Origin: Candidatus Fermentibacterota bacterium
Lineage (GTDB): Bacteria > Fermentibacterota > Fermentibacteria > Fermentibacterales > JCC-6
Length of the DNA: 64,000 bases
Reading direction: 5' to 3'
NCBI GenBank assembly: GCA_014728175.1
Contig: WJMA01000062.1
Location: forward strand, 6,914-70,913
The stretch's first letter is position 1, and every line of letters begins with the position of its first letter. The position numbers and the translations under genes are program-made. This document shows, one piece after another, positions 15,502-53,299 of this stretch. Below the pieces are notes generated by a model, which was given only the letters and a program-made list of their open reading frames with translations, ran no database searches and was not told where the DNA came from.

Positions 15502-16191
15502 TCAAAGGCGCTGCATTATCTCTTCGGGGCTCAAGTGACCGACCCTTCCTCCGGTTACGGTGACGGTAAGGTTGGACTCGATGTCGTCCTCCAGACCCTC
15601 GATAAGGCGCTTGGCGGCCGTCTTCGCGTTCTCCGCCGAGGTCTCTGGGAGTATTATGAGCAGCGCCCCGTAAGAGACCCTGCACAGGTGATCGGACAAC
15701 CGCATGTTTATAAGCAGATCGAGCACCGTTCTATGGGGAATCTCCGTATCCTCGCCGGCCGGAGCCATCAGTATGAAGCTCAGAGGGGTGTCGTAACGCT
15801 TGGACCAGGCCAGCATGCTTCTGATCAAATGTCTGGCGGTCACGGCGTCGCCCAGACGGTAAACGCTGTTGGCCAGCAGGCTCTCGGCTCTGAAACGCAT
15901 CTCCTTGCGCGAGGTGGGCCTGAAGACCACTTCCGATACCCCGGCCTGCCAGGCGAGTTGCCCCTCCTCTCGGGAACCGACAACTCCTATCAGAGGAAGA
16001 AACGGGGTTTGCCAAAGGGCCATGGTCCGGGTGGCGCTCTCCACGCTTTCGATGCCGTCGGCGACTATTATCGATGGCATCTCTTCCCCGCCCGACGGCA
16101 GCCCGGCCTGCGCCTTCTCCCCTCCGGCGCCCTGCAGCATGTCCACCAGTCGTCTGGTCTCGTCTTCATCGGTGCCCAGAACACGAATCAT
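15502..16191 (-). CDS. Hypothetical regulatory protein with degenerate GGDEF-like (nucleotide-cyclase fold) C-terminal region
   Basis: PLSFILMAPAGEDTEI...DHLCRVSYGALLIILPETSAENAKTAAKRLIEGLE resembles a GGDEF domain lacking the GG(D/E)EF active site. N-terminal half resembles a receiver/GAF-less sensor. Weak assignment. Confidence 0.4.
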   Translation of the reverse strand: MIRVLGTDEDETRRLVDMLQGAGGEKAQAGLPSGGEEMPSIIVADGIESVESATRTMALWQTPFLPLIGVVGSREEGQLAWQAGVSEVVFRPTSRKEMRFRAESLLANSVYRLGDAVTARHLIRSMLAWSKRYDTPLSFILMAPAGEDTEIPHRTVLDLLINMRLSDHLCRVSYGALLIILPETSAENAKTAAKRLIEGLEDDIESNLTVTVTGGRVGHLSPEEIMQRL

Positions 16192-16290
16192 GACCGGTAC
16201 GCCCCTCTTCCGATACCGACCTCAGGCTCCACACCAACCTCCCATGAATAACCCTTGAGAGCCCCGTTGAAAAGAGAAACGAAGAGAAGC

Positions 16291-17129
16291 GGGACGTTCA
16301 TAAAGAAATTGGTTCTTCTCCGGAAAAGTGAGTTGATGTAGTAGCTGGTAGATAAGTGACATCGGTACATCCAATCTGTATCTAATTCAAAAGCCGTGAG
16401 TTAGATCACAGAGAGGAGCACCGATGTCGTTGTTGAGTATAGCGAAGTACTTTCCCTGGAGTCGAGTGGTGGTTACGGGTCAGAAGTTGGAGGCTTCATC
16501 CGTGGTCACAGCGATGCGCCCGGATCGGCGTTACAGAATTGTTTGCAGTCGCTGTGGTGGTAATGTGACGAGGACGAGTTCGCACCACGGTAGGAGGGTC
16601 AGGGATTTGGATCTGGGCGGTTGTCGGTCCGCGATAGAGCTCACCTACTGCTAGGCATACTGCCGGGATCGTGGATGTGTAGTGGTGGAGGATCCTGGAG
16701 TGGTAGTTCCCCGGAGGCGGGTAACCCGGCGGTATGCGATATACATCCATGAGTGATGCAGGATGATGACTGTATCAGACGTATCCCGTCACCTGGGTTT
16801 GGACTGGAAGACGGTGAAGGAGATCGATAAGGCCTTCCTTGAATAGGAGTACGGTAAGACGGACTATTCCAATCTTCGTCTGCTTGCGGTGGATGAGATA
16901 TCGAACCTTCGGCGCCACAACCACATGACGGTGGTGTTGGACTACGACAGCGGGCGTGTGGTATGGATGGGTCTGGGGCGTCGCACCGAGACGCTTGAGG
17001 CCTTTTTCGCTGGCATGACGCAGTCTCAGCGAGAGTCTATCGAAGCTGAGGATCAAGTTTTCTTTAGTTTCTTTGTAAACGTCCCGCAATATCTCAAGTA
17101 GATAACTTTAATTGCTTTATGAACGCCCC
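16291..17129 (+). mobile_element. Decayed, internally deleted ISL3-family insertion sequence bounded by 15-bp inverted repeats (GGGACGTTCATAAAG / CTTTATGAACGCCCC)
   Basis: IR-L at 16291-16305 and IR-R at 17115-17129, with 14/15 complementary. Lower GC than surroundings. Encloses ISL3-type transposase fragments. Abuts the wbaP stop codon. Confidence 0.75.
16424..17101 (+). pseudogene. ISL3-family transposase pseudogene (N-terminal zinc-finger and HTH regions; in-frame TAG at ~16842; DDE catalytic domain missing)
   Basis: Fragments RIVCSRCGGNVTRTSSHHGRRVRDLDLGG (zf-ISL3), VSRHLGLDWKTVKEIDKAFLE*EYGKT and LLAVDEISNLRRHNHMTVVLDYDSGRVVWMGLGRRTETLEAFF are hallmark ISL3 transposase segments. Total coding length ~225 aa versus ~400+ aa in intact members. 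Confidence 0.75.
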
Positions 17130-17133
17130 GTAG

Positions 17134-18560
17134 TTAATAGGCACCCCTGCCTTTGAATATGGTCAGAACGGTTCTAATCAGTATGACGAAGTCCAGCATC
17201 AGCGACTGGTTTCGGATGTAGTAAAAGTCGTACTCGATATTCTCGTGCAGCGGCAGGTCCTTCCTGCCCATCACCTGCCACAGGCCGGTCATGCCGGGCT
17301 TGGCGTCCAGGCGGTGCATCTGCCATCGCGCGTAACTCTTCACTATGAACGTCATCTCCGGCCTGGGCCCCACCAGGCTCATGCTGCCGCTCAAGACGTT
17401 GAACAGCTGGGGCAACTCGTCCAGGCTGGTCTTGCGCAGGATCCTGCCGATGAACGTGACCCGGGGGTCGCCCTTCTCCAAAGGCGCCACCTCGTACTCG
17501 TCCGCCTCCGGTTTCATGGTGCGGAACTTATAGAGCGTGAACTCTTTGCCTTTAAGGCCGACTCTCTTCTGCTTGAATATGGGGCTGCCCTTGGTCGTCA
17601 GCAGCAGGATGAGGTAGATCACCACCAGCAGGGGCAGTAGAAGCAGTATCAGAAAGGCCGAGCAGAGCAGGTCCATCGTTCTCTTGAGGAACCGTTGAAA
17701 GAGCGAGGGTCTTCCGTATCCGATCTCGATTATCGGAATCCTGGAGAGATCGTCCAGATCGGTCTTGCCGGTGGCGATCTCGAAGAGGTCGCTCACCAAT
17801 CTGAAGTGTACGTCCTTCTTCCTCACGGTGGATATGATCCCCAGCATCTTCGACCTCTCCAGCTCCGGTGAGGCGAAGAAGACCTCGTCGGCGTCGTGGC
17901 TCTCCACCAGCCGGTGAACGTCGGCCAGGGTTCCGATGACCGGGGCGCCCTCGAACTCCTCCAACTCATCGTCCGGCCGCAGGGTAAGCACTCCGGCTAT
18001 CTCCGGGGCCGGTTCCGGTAGCTGTCTGATCTTCCTTATCACCCGGCGGGCCACATCACCCGTCCCCACCACCAGAATCCTGGGAGCTATGCGAATGGGC
18101 GCTATGAGCTGGGCCAGCTTCTTCGCCCCCGCCCTGGCCATGACGGTCAAGGGCAGGGAGATGATTATGAACATCAGCATCATCAGCCGGGAGTAGTCCT
18201 TCTTGACCAGGTAGCTCGCAGCCATCAGGGAGACGCCCAGGATCAGTAGGGCCTTGATTATCCGCTGCATTCTCCTGACGCTTCCCCCGTACCGACGAGG
18301 TCGATACAGACCGTTTACGCCGAAGCATACCAGCCACAAAATCACTATCACCGGAAGCGTCGGCAGGTACACCGATAGATCGTGGTGGAAGTAATGAAGC
18401 AGGTCCCTCAGAATGGTGTTCCTCAGCCAGAACGTTACTAAAAGGGCCACCGGGGCGGCTATCACGTCGGCAAAGACCAGGAGAACCGCCAGTACCCTGT
18501 CGGCTCTTCTTGCCGGAGCTAGCAAGATTTCCTCCAGAAACGAACGAGTCCCATCGTCAT
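17134..18560 (-). CDS. wbaP: Polyprenyl-phosphate hexose-1-phosphate transferase (WbaP/CpsE-type initiating sugar transferase)
   Basis: N-terminal TM helices, a central Rossmann-like region, and a C-terminal bacterial sugar-transferase domain ([18 protein letters not shown]). True start is unclear (no ATG). A TTG/CTG start near 18530-18560 overlaps the upstream GT2 stop. The ORF-track N-terminal extension to 19029 is rejected. Confidence 0.82.
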
Positions 18561-19481
18561 CCCGGCCAACAGGGCCGCCCCCCGACAGAGTGCGAACGCC
18601 GGGACCATCGGCGCCACGGCCGTATCGACTGCCAGCGTCACCCGCACCAGAGGCAGAGTGGTTATCACGAATGCCGCCAGCCACATCAGTGATAGATAGG
18701 GCATCATCGCCGAGGAGACCAGTACCGGCAGCAGCAGAGATATCAACACCAGCTGCACCTTGAGCATCGCCGGAGTGTACGAATCCGAGGCCGCCTTTCC
18801 CGGGAAACTCCGCACCACTTTCATCCTCCACTTCCCCCGAGACAGTTTCATCCTGAGATATGCGATCCAGGTAGGCTGGTGGCGATGCGCCACCCGCGCC
18901 GGCCGATGGAAGACCAGCCTGTATCCCGCAGTCTTCAGTCGGTAGGAGAGATCCACGTCCTCGTGATCCGGAAGGGGAAAGGACTCGTCGAACCCTCCCA
19001 CCGATTCCAGGGCCTCCCGGGTGAAGCATGCCGAGTAGGTGTCGACCAGATCTACATCTTCGCTCCGGGAAAGCAGCCTATACCGCTCCTCGAACTCCAC
19101 CTGGGCCAGCCGCTGGATCGTTCTCCGGCCTCCGCGGCTGTAACTTCCCTTGACTCCTCCCACTCCGGTCCGCATGGCCCTAAGCATCTCTTCAGCCCAC
19201 GAAGGCTCCGGAACGCAGTCGGCGTCGGTGAACATGACGTAGGGCAGCTCGGATGCCCTCCATCCCCTGTTTCTGGCCGCGGCCGGCCCAGAACCGGGCC
19301 CCGTGAGTACCAGGTCGACCAACCGCCTCACGCCCTCCGGGGGCTCCCCACGTCCGTCTATGGAAACCACTATCCGCAGCTTTCCTCTGATCGTTTGGGC
19401 ATTCAGCGCCTCCACGCAGTCCCGAAGGTTGGGATCGTCGGGCAACGAAGGCACCACCACGGCCGCTACTTGCTCCGACAT
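18519..19481 (-). CDS. Glycosyltransferase family 2 with C-terminal transmembrane helices (HpnI-like architecture)
   Basis: GT-A fold motifs (VVVPSLPDD, FTDADCVPEPSW, DxD-like DHEDVD) and ~3 C-terminal TM helices. Confidence 0.82.
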   Translation of the reverse strand: MSEQVAAVVVPSLPDDPNLRDCVEALNAQTIRGKLRIVVSIDGRGEPPEGVRRLVDLVLTGPGSGPAAARNRGWRASELPYVMFTDADCVPEPSWAEEMLRAMRTGVGGVKGSYSRGGRRTIQRLAQVEFEERYRLLSRSEDVDLVDTYSACFTREALESVGGFDESFPLPDHEDVDLSYRLKTAGYRLVFHRPARVAHRHQPTWIAYLRMKLSRGKWRMKVVRSFPGKAASDSYTPAMLKVQLVLISLLLPVLVSSAMMPYLSLMWLAAFVITTLPLVRVTLAVDTAVAPMVPAFALCRGAALLAGMTMGLVRFWRKSC

Positions 19482-39068: not shown

Positions 39069-39127
39069 AGGGACGTTCCTAGCTTTCTGGGCTTTTTCGG
39101 GGTTTTTGAGTTTTTTGAAAACGTTCC
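39069..39127 (+). repeat. Solo-TIR remnant related to the MITEs at 50.5/52.0 kb
   Basis: AGGGACGTTCCTAGCTTT followed by a T-rich stretch and AAAACGTTCCG. The first 14-18 nt are near-identical to the left TIR of both MITE copies. Confidence 0.5.
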
Positions 39128-39237
39128 GCAGTCGGGTTTGCCCGCGGGGGGAAAGGTTTGTATCCTTTAGCGCGTAGGCAGCTATCGCGGTTTTGGACGA
39201 TTGAGATCGGGGATGATAATCTGGGAGGGGGCACGGC

Positions 39238-47961: not shown

Positions 47962-48117
47962 CGTAACCTCCGTTTCAACGATAATATCATATGATTCTAC
48001 TCTAGTTAAGGCGGACTTTGGCCACCTCTTCGCTCAAACTCATCGGTCCTATATCGAGAGGTGGATTATATTCGCCTTCGTATGCGCTTGCTCGAACTGC
48101 AACCGGAGGAATCTTCC

Positions 48118-50523
48118 ATGGTCTTACTCGTGATCCTGGCTTTGCCCTTGGCAACATCCTCGGCCCCCGCCCAAACAACCTACATGGAACCCGACTCAGG
48201 GCTGGTAAAGATAGTGGATGCTCAGCTCGCTCCCTGGATCAGTATCTCGCCCGACTGCAGATACTGGGCCCTTAGAACGCCATTACGCCATCCCTCCATA
48301 GCCGAGCTGGCCCGGGAAGAGCTGAAGCTGGCCGGGTTGCGCTTCAGCCCTGCGACCTACGCACCCACCAGAAGAACCAGGTACATTGGCATTGAGCTTA
48401 TGGAATACCCCGGTCTCGAGGTTCACAGCGTATCCGGACTGCCGGATAACCTTCGAAGCCTGAGCTTTCGCTGGTCTGCGGACGGCGCGAAGCTGGCCAT
48501 GACGAACGAGACCTCCGAGGGAGTCGAGTTGTGGGTCCTAGATGCCGAGAAGGCGGAGTCAAGAAGGATTCTGGGGCCACACGTCAGCCTCGCGGCTTAC
48601 GAGATGCCCCTGTGGCTTCCCGATGGCTCGGGTCTCGTTTGCTGCACCGTACCGGAGGAACGAAGCGGCCCTCCGGGTGAAGATCCGGTACCCGCCGGAC
48701 CGGTGATCCGGGAGACCTTCGGTGAGGAGGCGCCGGTAAGAACCTTACAGGACCTGTTGGAGGACCCACACGACAAGGACCTATTCGAGTATTACCTAAC
48801 CTCGCAATTGTCCATCGTGCGCCTGGACGGGACTGTTGAGCGCATCGGCCGACCGGGGATGATCTGGGCTTATCTCCCATCGCCCAACGGCGAGTACCTC
48901 CTGGTCGAGCGGCTCCACAGGCCCTTCTCCTACTCCGTCAACGCCTGGAGGTTCCCCACCACCATCGAGGTGTGGGACATGGAAGGCAACGTGGTCCTCG
49001 AGCTGGCCGACCTTCCCCTGAGAGAGGAGATACCGATAGCCCGGGGCAGTACCTACAAGGGACCCAGAAGCGTTGATTGGCGGAGCAACACCGATGCGAC
49101 CCTGTGCTGGGTGGAGGCGCTGGACGAAGGCGATGCAGGTTCGGAGGCCGAGCTGCGCGACCGGGTGTTCTCTCTACAGGCTCCGTTCGACTCCGAGCCC
49201 CGCCAGCTCATGGACCTGGAGTACAGGTTCGGGGGCATAGACTGGGGGAACGATTCACTCGCATTGGTCTCCGAATGGTGGTGGGTAAATAGAAGGTACA
49301 GGACCTGGCGGATAAGGCCCGGCCGGGATCGATGCCGACCGGAGCTGGTTCTGGACTACGTGTGGGAGGACAGGTACAACCATCCCGGCAATCCTCTGCG
49401 GAAGCGCAACGACCGCGGTCATCTGGTCCTGGTAGTCTCTGCGGACGGTGGATCGATCTACCTTCAGGGTAGAGGTGCATCGCCCGAAGGGAATAGGCCC
49501 TTCCTGGACCGTCTCGATCTGGCCACCCTGCAAAAAGAGCGGCTCTTCCGATCCCGGCCCCCATTCTACGAGCAACCGATCAGACTCGTCGACGACAGTT
49601 ATACCGAGCTCCTGTTGCGGCGGGAGTCCCCCGAGCAATACCCGAACTACTACGTCAGGAATCTGGAAAATGATACGGAGAGCCAGGTTACCTTCTTCGA
49701 AAATCCATTCACTCAACTCCAAGGCATGCACAAAGAGCTTCTCACGTACGCTCGAGGAGACGGCATCGAGCTATCCGCCATGCTCTACCTTCCCCCCGGT
49801 TACGATCCCGGCGAAGGCCCTCTTCCTCTGATAATGTGGGCCTATCCCCAGGAATACAGGTCCTCCGCCGCCGCCAGCCAGGTGAGCGGGTCGCCCTACG
49901 AGTTCGATTACCTCGACTGGTGGTCCCCGCTGATCTGGCTTACCCGCGGTTATGCCGTTCTCGAAAACCCGGCCATGCCCATAGTCGGCGAAGGCGACCG
50001 AAAGCCCAACGACGATTTCGTGCCCCAGCTGGTGATGAGTGCCAGAGCGGCCGTAGACAAGGTGGTCGATATGGGCGTAGCCGACCCCGATAGGATAGTT
50101 ATCAGCGGGCATTCGTACGGTGCGTTCATGACCGCCAACCTGCTGGCGCACTCCGACCTGTTCTGCGCAGGTATTGCCAGGACCGGTGCGTACAACCGGA
50201 CCCTCACCCCATTTGGCTTCCAGAGCGAGGACAGGTCGCTGTGGGAGGCGACAGACGTCTATGTGGAAATGTCTCCCTTCATGAACGCAGACTCCATAGA
50301 GGAGCCCATTCTATTGATCCATGGGGAGGAAGACCGCAACTCCGGTACCTTTCCCATGCAGAGCGAACGGATGTACGAAGCGCTGAAAGGGCTGGGCGGC
50401 ACCGCCAGGCTGGTTATGCTTCCGCTGGAGGGCCATTGGTACGAGGCCAGGGAGTCGGTTCTGCACGTGGTCTGGGAGACCCAGCAATGGCTGGACGAGT
50501 ACGCATCCCAGGGACGTTTCTAG
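48118..50523 (+). CDS. Prolyl oligopeptidase family S9 peptidase (beta-propeller + alpha/beta hydrolase; acylaminoacyl-peptidase/DPP-like)
   Basis: C-terminal catalytic domain with nucleophile elbow GHSYGAF, downstream Asp/His regions (…HGEEDRN…; …EGHWY…) and an N-terminal propeller. Start could be GTG 48061, ATG 48082 or ATG 48118 (signal-peptide-like MVLLVILALPLATSSAPAQ). Confidence 0.85.
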   Translation: MVLLVILALPLATSSAPAQTTYMEPDSGLVKIVDAQLAPWISISPDCRYWALRTPLRHPSIAELAREELKLAGLRFSPATYAPTRRTRYIGIELMEYPGLEVHSVSGLPDNLRSLSFRWSADGAKLAMTNETSEGVELWVLDAEKAESRRILGPHVSLAAYEMPLWLPDGSGLVCCTVPEERSGPPGEDPVPAGPVIRETFGEEAPVRTLQDLLEDPHDKDLFEYYLTSQLSIVRLDGTVERIGRPGMIWAYLPSPNGEYLLVERLHRPFSYSVNAWRFPTTIEVWDMEGNVVLELADLPLREEIPIARGSTYKGPRSVDWRSNTDATLCWVEALDEGDAGSEAELRDRVFSLQAPFDSEPRQLMDLEYRFGGIDWGNDSLALVSEWWWVNRRYRTWRIRPGRDRCRPELVLDYVWEDRYNHPGNPLRKRNDRGHLVLVVSADGGSIYLQGRGASPEGNRPFLDRLDLATLQKERLFRSRPPFYEQPIRLVDDSYTELLLRRESPEQYPNYYVRNLENDTESQVTFFENPFTQLQGMHKELLTYARGDGIELSAMLYLPPGYDPGEGPLPLIMWAYPQEYRSSAAASQVSGSPYEFDYLDWWSPLIWLTRGYAVLENPAMPIVGEGDRKPNDDFVPQLVMSARAAVDKVVDMGVADPDRIVISGHSYGAFMTANLLAHSDLFCAGIARTGAYNRTLTPFGFQSEDRSLWEATDVYVEMSPFMNADSIEEPILLIHGEEDRNSGTFPMQSERMYEALKGLGGTARLVMLPLEGHWYEARESVLHVVWETQQWLDEYASQGRF

Positions 50524-50647
50524 CTTTTTTAGCTCTTTTGGCTTTTCTTCAAACCCACTTCCGTATGAAAGTCTTGAGTTTCATATAGTAAAGGCAGATT
50601 AGGAGTTAGCGAGGTGCTTTAACTTCTTTAGGAACGTCCCGGAGTTA
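50504..50647 (+). mobile_element. MITE-like element copy A (~144 bp) with terminal inverted repeats GGGACGTTTCTAGC / GGAACGTCCC and an internal hairpin
   Basis: Left TIR 50511-50524, right TIR 50631-50640 (exact reverse complement of GGGACGTTCC). Internal hairpin TATGAAA…TTTCATA at 50564-50585. ~90% identical to copy B. Overlaps the last codons and stop of the S9 peptidase gene. Confidence 0.7.
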
Positions 50648-50649
50648 CG

Positions 50650-51954
50650 CTAGATGTAGGCCATGTCTTTGAACCACTTTGCTTTATGATCTCCAACCTC
50701 CACGGGATCCGGTATGGCTACGGGAACCGTGGCCCAGTACGTCCGCACATTCTCAACCTGGGTTCTGTCGGGAGCTAGCCTGCTATCCTCGTCCTCAAAT
50801 CCCTGGGACAGATCGTACCCCCACGCTGAGTCAGCATCAGCATCCCACAGGACTTTGGCATCACCGAAACGAACCGCCGCTCTCTGCTTCAAGCCCGTGT
50901 TTACACCACTGGAGGGAACACCTTCGTGCCCGACGCCGTCAGTAGGAAGAAGAGAGACGCCCTGAACGTAATCAGGAACAGAACCCTCAGTCAGGTGCAT
51001 TAGGGTAGGAAGGATATCGTACTGGCCCACTACGTCATCAACCACTGAATCCTCGGGAATCCCGGGACCGCTCATGATGAGGGGAACGTGGATGGTTTCT
51101 TGGAAGAACTGCCGGCCATGGAACATCATTCCGTGATCAAGGAATTCTTCGCCGTGATCGGCCACCACCACGATTATGGTGTTCTCATCCAACCCTCTCT
51201 GCCTTAAACCCGCAAACAGCCTGCCCAACTCGCGATCACAGTAGCGAATCTCCATGTCGTAGCAGCTCATCATATCGTGCATCTCGCGCACCGTGATCCG
51301 GCCGTTCGCGTTCCGTCTTCGGATCGAAGAGGCCGATACGTTGGCCAGATCCTGCGGACCATCAGGTGCCGTATACGGCCAGTGGGGATCGAAGAAATGG
51401 GCAACGATGAAGAAGGGTTGCTCTATATCGCCGTCTACCCACTCGAAGATTCTATCTACGACCACCTCGGCATCGACCGTCTCCCTGCATCCCTCCACGT
51501 CGTAGCTTTGACAACCCCGGGTAAAACCGTACTCCACGTCCATGACCGGAGCGTTGAATATGCCGAAGGTAGCGTAATCCATCTCCGAGAAGAGATCGGG
51601 TAGGGTACTCAGCTCTCTTCCTATTCCGTACAAATGTTCCCCCCTGGTACCGGCCAAATGGGCCCTCTCTGTGACGCCAGTAAAAATCGAGGTCATGGAG
51701 GGAAGGGTCCAGGAGCTCTGTGCCTGGCAGCAGCTCCATCTTACGCCCTCCGAAGCAAGGCTATCCAGATGATCGGTTATCTTCCCATCGTATCCATAAC
51801 AATGAAGATGGTCCGCTCTGAGGGTATCGATGAGAACTAGGAGTACGTTCGGTCTTTTGCCGTCGCTCGAGCAGCCGACGAGCAACGCGGTCAGAAAAAG
51901 AATAGAACATCTGAGCACGCGGTGATTAGAACCAACGATGTAATGGGTGATCAT
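50650..51954 (-). CDS. Sulfatase-like hydrolase (alkaline phosphatase superfamily); canonical CxPxR formylglycine motif not evident
   Basis: N-terminal metal-binding PNVLLVLIDTLRADHLHCYGYD. Core sulfatase-domain blocks (…GRQFFQETIHVPLIMSGPGIP…YDILPTLMHL…). The position expected for C-x-P-x-R reads SSWTLPSMTSIFTG. Confidence 0.75.
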   Translation of the reverse strand: MITHYIVGSNHRVLRCSILFLTALLVGCSSDGKRPNVLLVLIDTLRADHLHCYGYDGKITDHLDSLASEGVRWSCCQAQSSWTLPSMTSIFTGVTERAHLAGTRGEHLYGIGRELSTLPDLFSEMDYATFGIFNAPVMDVEYGFTRGCQSYDVEGCRETVDAEVVVDRIFEWVDGDIEQPFFIVAHFFDPHWPYTAPDGPQDLANVSASSIRRRNANGRITVREMHDMMSCYDMEIRYCDRELGRLFAGLRQRGLDENTIIVVVADHGEEFLDHGMMFHGRQFFQETIHVPLIMSGPGIPEDSVVDDVVGQYDILPTLMHLTEGSVPDYVQGVSLLPTDGVGHEGVPSSGVNTGLKQRAAVRFGDAKVLWDADADSAWGYDLSQGFEDEDSRLAPDRTQVENVRTYWATVPVAIPDPVEVGDHKAKWFKDMAYI

Positions 51955-52028: not shown

Positions 52029-52171
52029 CATCCCTCAGGGACGTTCCTGGCCTTTTTAGTTTTTTTGGCTTTTCTTCAAACCCACTTCCGTATGGAAACC
52101 TTGAGTTTCATATAGTAAAGGCAGATTAGGAGTTAGCGAGGTACTTTAACTTTGAGAACGTCGCGGAGTTA
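52029..52171 (+). mobile_element. MITE-like element copy B (~143 bp), same orientation as copy A
   Basis: Left TIR GGGACGTTCCTGGC 52038-52051. Degenerate right TIR GAGAACGTCGC 52154-52164. Internal hairpin TATGGAAAC…GTTTCATA. Terminal GGAGTTA supplies the TAA stop of the adjacent OMP gene. Confidence 0.7.
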
Positions 52172-53299
52172 GAAGTAGTACGATGTGGTGACGTAGTAGA
52201 CGTCCGCGTATGAGCCCAGGTCTTCGCTATCGGAGCCGAAGCTGAGCTGTGAGCCCACCCCCAGGAAGACGTTCTGGGCAATGCTGTAGTCGACGGAGAG
52301 CATACCGTAGGCGGACGGTTCCTCCAGATTGACGAACCCGCTGGGAGTTACGGTCAGCAGAGGGGAAGCCTGCCAGCTCAGACCGTGGATCAAGTATTGG
52401 CTTCCGTTCAGGTAGACGTTCGGCCCCTGCCCTAGCTCGCGTGCTCTGTGAGACGAGTAGTGGTACTCGATCTGGCCGTAGAGGTCTGCAGCCAGCCTGT
52501 AGTCGGCTCCCAGGCTTGCCCTTAGCATGGTCTCCCCCGCCCGTCGTGACATCCCCCCGAGGAAGGTGCACGTTCCGTCGAACCAGACGCTGGCTCCTCC
52601 CGCCGCCCTCGACGCGTTGCAGCCCAATACGATGTCCCGCCTGTGGACGCCCACTATCAGGTCGATGTCCGATCGGGCTACGTAGTTGTGCAGTCGGGCG
52701 TAGATCGCGCTGCTGTCGGGAGCTGCGTGGTACCCCGAGACTACTCCCAAATCCAGTTCCGAGAAGAGCCCGAGCGGTACCCTTGCTCTCAGCGCATCGA
52801 CTCCCTGTCTGTTCTCGCTCTCCAGCTGGTTGAACGGGTAGGGTGCAAGGAAATCGCTCGGAGACACGAAGTGGGCGGTACCCCATGAGACGGCCTGTCT
52901 ACCTGCGATGACATCGGCAAACGAGAGCCTCAGTGTGGCGTTGAGTCTGTCGATGTTGGACAGAACGGCGAAACTCGTGGCGCTGTCGACATGCTCCGGG
53001 TGAAGGTAGAGGTCTGGGTCGGAGACCCGCAGCCCAGTTCTCCCCGAGTCACCCCAGAGTCTTCCGTCGCGAACGGTAGGCAAGAGGACGTACGCCCCCT
53101 CCAGCCGCAGGGTTCTCGAAATCCTGATACCGGATTCAAGGCGCAGAATACCTTGCCACGAGCCCGCCTCGCACAGGCTATCGTTTGGAAGGAGAGTATA
53201 TAGGGCGTAGCTCTTCCAGTGTCCGGCCAACCCTACCGGCGCGGCAAGGGCCGGAGCGAAGCAGAGCAGAAGAGCTAGTGCGCTAAGCCTTCCTCTCAT
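52169..53299 (-). CDS. Hypothetical outer-membrane beta-barrel protein (C-terminal …TTSYYF)
   Basis: Signal peptide MRGRLSALALLLCFAPALAAP. 376 aa with strand-like periodicity and a C-terminal Phe. Last gene of the TetR/LolA-like/ABC operon. Confidence 0.5.
   Translation of the reverse strand: MRGRLSALALLLCFAPALAAPVGLAGHWKSYALYTLLPNDSLCEAGSWQGILRLESGIRISRTLRLEGAYVLLPTVRDGRLWGDSGRTGLRVSDPDLYLHPEHVDSATSFAVLSNIDRLNATLRLSFADVIAGRQAVSWGTAHFVSPSDFLAPYPFNQLESENRQGVDALRARVPLGLFSELDLGVVSGYHAAPDSSAIYARLHNYVARSDIDLIVGVHRRDIVLGCNASRAAGGASVWFDGTCTFLGGMSRRAGETMLRASLGADYRLAADLYGQIEYHYSSHRARELGQGPNVYLNGSQYLIHGLSWQASPLLTVTPSGFVNLEEPSAYGMLSVDYSIAQNVFLGVGSQLSFGSDSEDLGSYADVYYVTTSYYF

Follow-up and report, generated by a model that had tools for sequence, protein, structure and literature searches.

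Genes and repeats at the edge of the glycan cluster

The final gene of the glycan-synthesis cluster in the window (by which we mean the whole 64,000-nucleotide stretch of DNA that was analyzed) encodes a polyprenyl glycosylphosphotransferase (Table 1). Its homologs are uniformly 462-465 aa long and are named Aegiribacteria or Fermentibacteraceae. The protein passes the cut-off of TIGR03025, the general EPS polyprenyl glycosylphosphotransferase model, and fails the WbaP-specific model; the general model gives it the best score, and the gene, named wbaP in the sequence-only reading of this DNA, is here called wbaP-like. The maximal ORF at this position (631 aa, 17134-19029) over-extends the gene by 168 low-complexity codons. 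Across the spacer lies a gene of 229 aa with no Pfam match and a weak match to NCBIfam DgcR (E = 0.0055). It had been described as a divergent GGDEF-like gene; it is indeed divergent from the transposase relic described below, it shares the strand of the wbaP-like gene, and the GGDEF label is weak.

The spacer between these genes is largely occupied by remnants of mobile elements. Their placement at the 3' end of the wbaP-like locus was read correctly from the sequence, the right-hand tip lying 4 nt from the stop codon at 17134-17136. On the other side, a block upstream of the 229-aa gene (16242-16280) is conserved in the related contig L016 and lies outside the debris. A promoter and terminator scan of 15900-17400 returned counts equal to the shuffle expectation, and we therefore claim no regulatory effect of the relic.

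Table 1. Features of the spacer, its flanking genes and related repeats elsewhere in the window
Feature	Position	Strand	Remarks
229-aa gene	15502-16191	-	identical to GF402_10975 of Candidatus Fermentibacteria bacterium
Left B-type terminal repeat CGGGACGTTCATAAAGAAATT of the GGGACGTT MITE-like family	16290-16310	+	aligned with the B-ends at 50640 and 52164
ISL3-family IS, 5' part	16311-17046	+	blastn against L001 and L004
True ISL3 left terminal inverted repeat GGTTCTTCTCCGGAAAAGTGAG	16311-16332	+	17-21/22 against IRL/IRR of L001, L004 and L014
Transposase pseudogene	16424-17046	+	codons 1-208 of about 396
In-frame stops of the pseudogene	16652-16654 (TAG), 16754-16756 (TGA), 16844-16846 (TAG)		
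R1, second B-type end fragment, reverse complement GGGACGTTTACAAAGAAACTAAAG...	17047-17087	-	tip 17087
R2, third B-type end, reverse complement CGGGGCGTTCATAAAGCAATTAAAGTTATC...	17088-17130	-	tip 17129/17130
Polyprenyl glycosylphosphotransferase, wbaP-like, 463 aa, TTG start	17134-18525	-	final gene of the glycan cluster
MITE-like copy 3, short, about 59 bp	39070-39128		A-type left end
MITE-like copy 1, 130 bp	50511-50640		A-type end left, B-type end right
MITE-like copy 2, 127 bp	52038-52164		92% identical to copy 1 over 115 bp

A truncated and decayed ISL3-family element

At the core of the spacer lies an incomplete ISL3-family insertion sequence: its 5' 55% remains (about 736 of about 1330 bp), and the 3' half, together with the right end, is lost to deletion. 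Nucleotide similarity to full-length relatives is confined to 16311-17046. For comparison we used L001-L003, the Logan DNA of the nearest proteins, and L004, a GTDB MAG contig that was found through the conserved end sequence and in which the element is intact (about 1.33 kb) and its 396-aa transposase spans the whole DDE profile. In blastn the relic is 75.7% identical to L001 (738 aligned columns, 4 gaps) and 76.5% identical to L004, and the coding stretch (16424-17049, 626 nt) aligns with L004 free of gaps at 75.7% identity. At the protein level the relic and the intact L004 transposase share about 75% identity across 208 aa, the closest proteins in a large database are 74% identical to it, and sequence resembling the relatives stops after ...SQRESIEA, the final 17 of 225 codons being unrelated. 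Two ORFs of 76 and 70 aa are pieces of this pseudogene; exact-protein look-ups with these two, with the 631-aa ORF and with the 229-aa protein returned no record.

Profile searches place the relic in the same family. The NCBIfam model transpos_ISL3 (NF033550) matches it with E = 4.8e-31 over profile positions 9-180 of 370, at 108 bits against a full-length cut-off of 180 bits, a shortfall that arises because half of the transposase is missing. Both Pfam HTH_Tnp_ISL3 (41 bits) and DDE_Tnp_ISL3 (33 bits) score over their cut-offs; the DDE match covers only profile positions 1-57 of 240, compared with 1-239 in the intact relative, and with three stops in the frame there is no complete, open DDE domain. 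The zinc ribbon is degenerate: Pfam detects it in the intact relative and not in the relic, which has lost the second cysteine pair (CRDRGC, compared with CSDCDR in the relative). The ISL3 transposase fragments reported between the outer arms from sequence alone are thereby confirmed, with several amendments. The helix-turn-helix is recovered by Pfam and the zinc-finger N-terminus is not; the internal TAG exists and is one of three stops; the truncation is real, with a homologous part of 208 codons in place of about 225 out of 400 or more; and the DDE domain, described there as deleted, has lost most of its length while keeping the first 57 profile positions.

By the evidence of its sequence, then, the relic is a decayed, truncated ISL3-family member from which most of the DDE domain is missing. 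It agrees with the family (Pfam Zn_ribbon_ISL3, HTH_Tnp_ISL3 and DDE_Tnp_ISL3; NF033550) in its profile matches and in a left end, GGTTCTTCTCC..., of the type common to its relatives; it differs from functional members in having one end, 208 of about 396 codons, three stops and an incomplete DDE domain, and is in this sense a fossil. Because it retains one end, the first part of the DDE domain and a frame broken by stops, it is unable to move or to make transposase. Neither a second nor an intact ISL3 copy was found within the 64-kb window by blastn, tblastn or pattern search. At about 75% amino-acid identity, the nearest relatives are metagenomic copies that have not been catalogued; the relic is itself an uncatalogued member of a well-known IS family.

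True ends of the ISL3 element

Full-length relatives define where this IS begins. L001, L004 and L014 share on both ends the consensus GG(T/A)TCTTCTCC(S)(R)AAAAGT, and further metagenomic ISL3 copies have ends with the same GG(T/A)TCTTCTCC start and flanks that are unrelated from locus to locus. Target duplications of 8 bp are typical of the ISL3 family in ISfinder descriptions. In L001 the ISL3 ends are flanked immediately by such a duplication, perfect over its 8 bp (AGCCGGGA); in L004 and L014 a clean 8-bp duplication is absent or eroded. The window contains a single match to this kind of end with three or fewer mismatches (chance expectation 0.02), at 16311-16332, so the relic has a left end and no partner for it. 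We place the true left end at 16311, and regard the 20 nt outside it as foreign to the IS, because the full-length relatives end there.

Those 20 nt read GGGACGTTCATAAAGAAATT and belong to the B-end family of MITE-like repeats described below. The ISL3 tip is written GGTTCTTC below.

The flanks of the IS elsewhere show one likeness of their own. The left-end flank in L004 (3108-3130, TTGCATTATGTATAAGTATTG) resembles the right-end flank in L011 (495-516, TTGCATTTCATAAGTATTT) over about 20 nt, and the two loci differ further out from the ISL3 ends; this points either to a target that the IS favors or to a further small repeat in which it landed.

The outer arms are ends of a MITE-like repeat family

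The inverted pair that brackets the relic, GGGACGTTCATAAAG (16291-16305) and CTTTATGAACGCCCC (17115-17129), matches at 14 of 15 positions, and the match extends to 21 nt (19/21, 90%; 16290-16310 and 17110-17130). A 19/21 inverted repeat on its own arises in 4% of shuffles of the surrounding 2.5-kb region; we take the pair as real because its arms belong to a repeat family (alignment A1). A repeat finder also returned a second right-hand arm at 17068-17087 (20 nt, 90%), which brings the ends to three, one pointing rightward and two leftward. Between R1 and the ISL3 interior lies a deletion junction, 17046/17047. R2 is uninterrupted, lies 4 nt from the wbaP-like stop and occupies the same position as ends in L005 and L006. 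The left arm, R1 and R2 all align with ends that L005, L006 and L016 have at this locus.

When all GGGACGTT-type ends are aligned they fall into two classes. Class B has the consensus (C)GGGACGTTCNTAAAGNAATTAAAG, with tips at 50640, 52164, 16291, 17087 and 17129; class A, GGGACGTTCCTAGC..., comprises left ends at 39070, 50511 and 52038. The arms around the relic resemble the MITE B-ends for about 24 nt, well beyond the 9 nt recognized earlier. Intact B-ends continue as ...AATT-AAAG, and at 16310|16311 the sequence is ...AATT-GGTTCTTC instead; since AAAG is here replaced by the ISL3 tip, the ISL3 end interrupts a B-end. The right-hand arms are without any ISL3 right end, and there the sequence goes on as MITE-type AAAG.... 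No target duplications were found outside the GGGACGTT arms.

The sequence-only reading had described 15-bp inverted repeats as the ends of the IS itself, with a tip shared by MITEs elsewhere in the window. The repeats are where it put them, matching at 14 of 15 positions, although there are three ends rather than one pair, and the shared tip is real: GGGACGTTC tips the repeats at 39070, 50511/50640 and 52038/52164. What does not hold is their attribution to the IS. End mapping on full-length copies, which had been set beforehand as the test that could refute it, did not reproduce the 15-bp repeat; these copies end at GG(T/A)TCTTCTCC, and homology begins at 16311.

MITE-like repeats elsewhere in the window

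The GGGACGTT elements are short, have inverted ends and are present in at least three copies in the 64 kb. The MITE label is provisional, because target duplications around the repeats were not seen and a transposase gene for GGGACGTT ends was not found in the window. It had also been proposed that the MITEs derive from this ISL3 family and are mobilized by an intact copy. ISL3 ends agree with MITE ends at 9-11 of 22 positions, compared with 17-21 of 22 among ISL3 ends, and outside the outer arm nothing in the IS resembles the MITE interiors; an ISL3 origin of the MITEs is therefore unsupported, as is their mobilization by an intact ISL3 copy, given the same low likeness of the ends. If they are mobilized at all, the MITE-like repeats would be served by another transposase that recognizes GGGACGTT ends.

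Wider searches gave nothing further: a 24-nt MITE core had no exact matches in the genome contig collection or in JGI metagenomes, the B-end pattern returned nothing from viral contigs, Rfam recognized no family anywhere in the window, and the literature on ISL3-derived MITEs and on Fermentibacteria transposases yielded nothing useful. When the MITE copies and the stretch 17040-17140 were folded as RNA, none did better than shuffled sequence save one copy, which was modestly better (z = -2.9 for 50505-50650); the idea of a terminator or structured RNA was therefore dropped.

The repeats overlap or adjoin stop codons (50511-50523, 52165-52171 and 17130-17136). The TAG of the ORF at 48061-50523 sits within the A-end CTAG of copy 1, and a conserved flank outside the B-ends, TAACT(C/A)C, provides the TAA stop both of the ORF at 52169-53299 (minus strand) and of the wbaP-like gene. 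The Correia/NEMIS elements of Neisseria are bacterial MITEs found at gene ends. Like these, the GGGACGTT elements are 60-130 bp long, have terminal inverted repeats and no ORF, and lie in short intergenic spacers at stop codons; unlike them, they show no target duplication, no parent transposase and no Rfam match.

The same locus in related genomes

Two relatives with 76-77% nucleotide identity to the window, L006 and L016, carry GGGACGTT-type ends at this locus with no adjoining ISL3 sequence. On the wbaP side, a B-like end (GGGACGTTTATAAAAAAG...) begins 2 nt past the stop in L006; on the side of the downstream gene, L016 has the inverted partner (...TTTTTTTATAAACGTCCC), which is separated by 17 nt from the block conserved upstream of the 229-aa orthologue, compared with 11 nt in the window. 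Since these ends occur without ISL3, a GGGACGTT-ended element held the spacer independently of the IS, and it was probably there before the IS arrived. In each case the assembly runs out about 130 nt into the element, which is what a multi-copy repeat would lead one to expect; when the tail of L006 was matched to the head of L016, agreement was limited to the 18-nt tips. The contig breaks suggest that the element in these relatives is longer and multi-copy, and it is possibly the autonomous parent of the MITEs. The terminal stretches of the two contigs (L006 6395-6526 and L016 1-132) also share a subterminal similarity, GGGCATTT..TTTC.CGGAGT.

More distant relatives within the Fermentibacterota, to which the host belongs, have no such element at the locus; these are L018 and L019 (wbaP-like protein 61-62% identical). 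In these, a PAS-domain gene of 505 or 508 aa (L018 4393-5910; L019 4392-5918) directly follows the wbaP stop and is itself followed by the 227- or 229-aa orthologue. No homologue of the PAS-domain gene was found in the window, where its position (16192-17133) holds mobile-element debris only.

A closer relative, L005, can be followed collinearly along the window between 21338 and 17110 (91.6% identity). Its homology ends exactly at the ...AATT of the wbaP-proximal arm and is followed by GGTTCTTC, where the window has AAAG; the contig ends 8 nt into ISL3. The junction, ...TAAAGTAATT|GGTTCTTC, is the same arm/ISL3 junction as in the window, in the opposite arm. Such a recurrence in a relative is mildly unusual and suggests either site-preferring insertion or inversion. 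Between the wbaP stop and the B-end of L005 (4196-4214) there is also a tandem 8-bp duplication, CGTACTAA CGTACTAA, of the size of ISL3 target duplications, which may be an excision footprint.

A probable nested insertion and its alternatives

We consider the interval to be nested mobile-element debris rather than one IS with its own inverted repeats, with a probability of about 80%. From the observed boundaries, homology, decay and family membership of the arms we infer the following order of events. A GGGACGTT-type element would have come first, entering the spacer between the wbaP-like and 229-aa genes and leaving the inverted ends now at 16290-16310 and 17110-17130. An ISL3 element of about 1.33 kb, encoding a 396-aa transposase, would then have landed 20 nt into the left arm, just after ...AAGAAATT, presumably by ordinary transposition, for which an 8-bp duplication of AAGAAATT would be expected. 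A later deletion would have removed everything from codon 209 through the right end, fusing the IS interior to the 41-nt B-end fragment at 17047-17087, and the remaining frame would afterwards have been degraded by three nonsense mutations and by the loss of a cysteine from the zinc ribbon.

The original interpretation, in which a single ISL3 element carries GGGACGTTCATAAAG as its own terminal repeats and the MITEs are its deletion derivatives, mobilized by an intact copy, can point to an inverted pair that is real and brackets the relic, and to the repetition of arm plus ISL3 junction in L005. We nevertheless judge it highly improbable: the full-length relatives lack the 20-nt extension and in L001 the duplication lies directly at the GG(T/A)TCTTCTCC ends, neither of the two right-hand arms is joined to an ISL3 right end, L006 and L016 carry the arms at this locus without ISL3, and ISL3 and MITE ends agree at only 9-11 of 22 positions. 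The L005 junction could also mean that GGGACGTT arms and an ISL3 passenger form a composite unit, moved together by a transposase of the GGGACGTT family, with copies in the window and in L005. The same arm/ISL3 junction is seen in two arrangements (16310|16311 in the window, the opposite arm in L005), and the break of the L005 contig 8 nt into ISL3 is as expected at a repeat. Such a unit is very unlikely, given that both junctions lie at one chromosomal locus, in arms whose position is conserved across relatives, that the 64-kb window holds no second copy, and that no target duplication is found outside the arms.

A different relation between the two arrangements, compatible with nested debris, would be inversion, in which the GGGACGTT arms at 16290-16310 and 17110-17130 recombine and L005 represents the flipped state. 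Inversion predicts what is seen, the ISL3 left end lying at the wbaP-proximal arm in L005 and at the distal arm in the window. Arms of 20 nt with 2 mismatches are, however, short for homologous recombination, no recombinase gene was noted nearby, and L005 offers 8 nt of the IS only. In addition, the AT-rich flanks of ISL3 are alike in L004 and L011 (...ATAAGTATT|) and at the wbaP locus (...ATAAAGAAATT| and ...TTAAAGTAATT|), and the similarity of ATAAGTATT to ATAAAGAAATT favors independent insertions at a preferred target; we therefore regard inversion as unlikely. Within the nested reading, these observations raise a tentative idea, to which we give a minor but real chance: the ISL3 clade may favor ...TAAAGNAATT^AAAG in GGGACGTT arms, both arms having been hit independently in two Fermentibacteria lineages, or else the arms may be inversion sites beside the glycan locus. 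IS1397 and ISKpn1 land in REP/BIME sequences, and IS110-family elements in REPs. The present case is like these in that an IS lies at a defined position inside a short-repeat arm and the junction recurs in a second lineage; it is unlike them in consisting of two observations at one locus, where the AT-rich flanks may mean no more than a general AT-rich preference. To our knowledge, repeat-specific targeting has not been described for the ISL3 family.

For annotation, nested debris means that 16311-17046 should be entered as an ISL3 pseudogene fragment amid the ends of an unrelated repeat family, and that the interval is unsuitable as evidence on the origin of the MITE-like repeats. More generally, where shared inverted repeats bracket a transposase relic, they can be those of a host element that the IS entered. 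The edge of the glycan-synthesis cluster is also a spot that mobile DNA has hit repeatedly.

Possible frameshifting in ISL3 homologues

More distant ISL3 homologues, at 42-50% identity (P0006-P0120), are mostly ORFs of 231-297 aa with recurring lengths that end just past ...DMWDPFIKAVKKN. A run of A8 is absent from the element in the window, from L001 and from L004. It is present in L017 (ENA ERZ21862645 ctg38575l, 2160-2230), which reads GTT AAAAAAAA CTT, and there a -1 shift at the run restores the canonical KKLPQAAIVFDMFHVV into the next ORF, which likewise matches DDE_Tnp_ISL3. Production of full-length transposase in a large ISL3 subgroup thus seems to depend on frameshifting or on transcriptional slippage.
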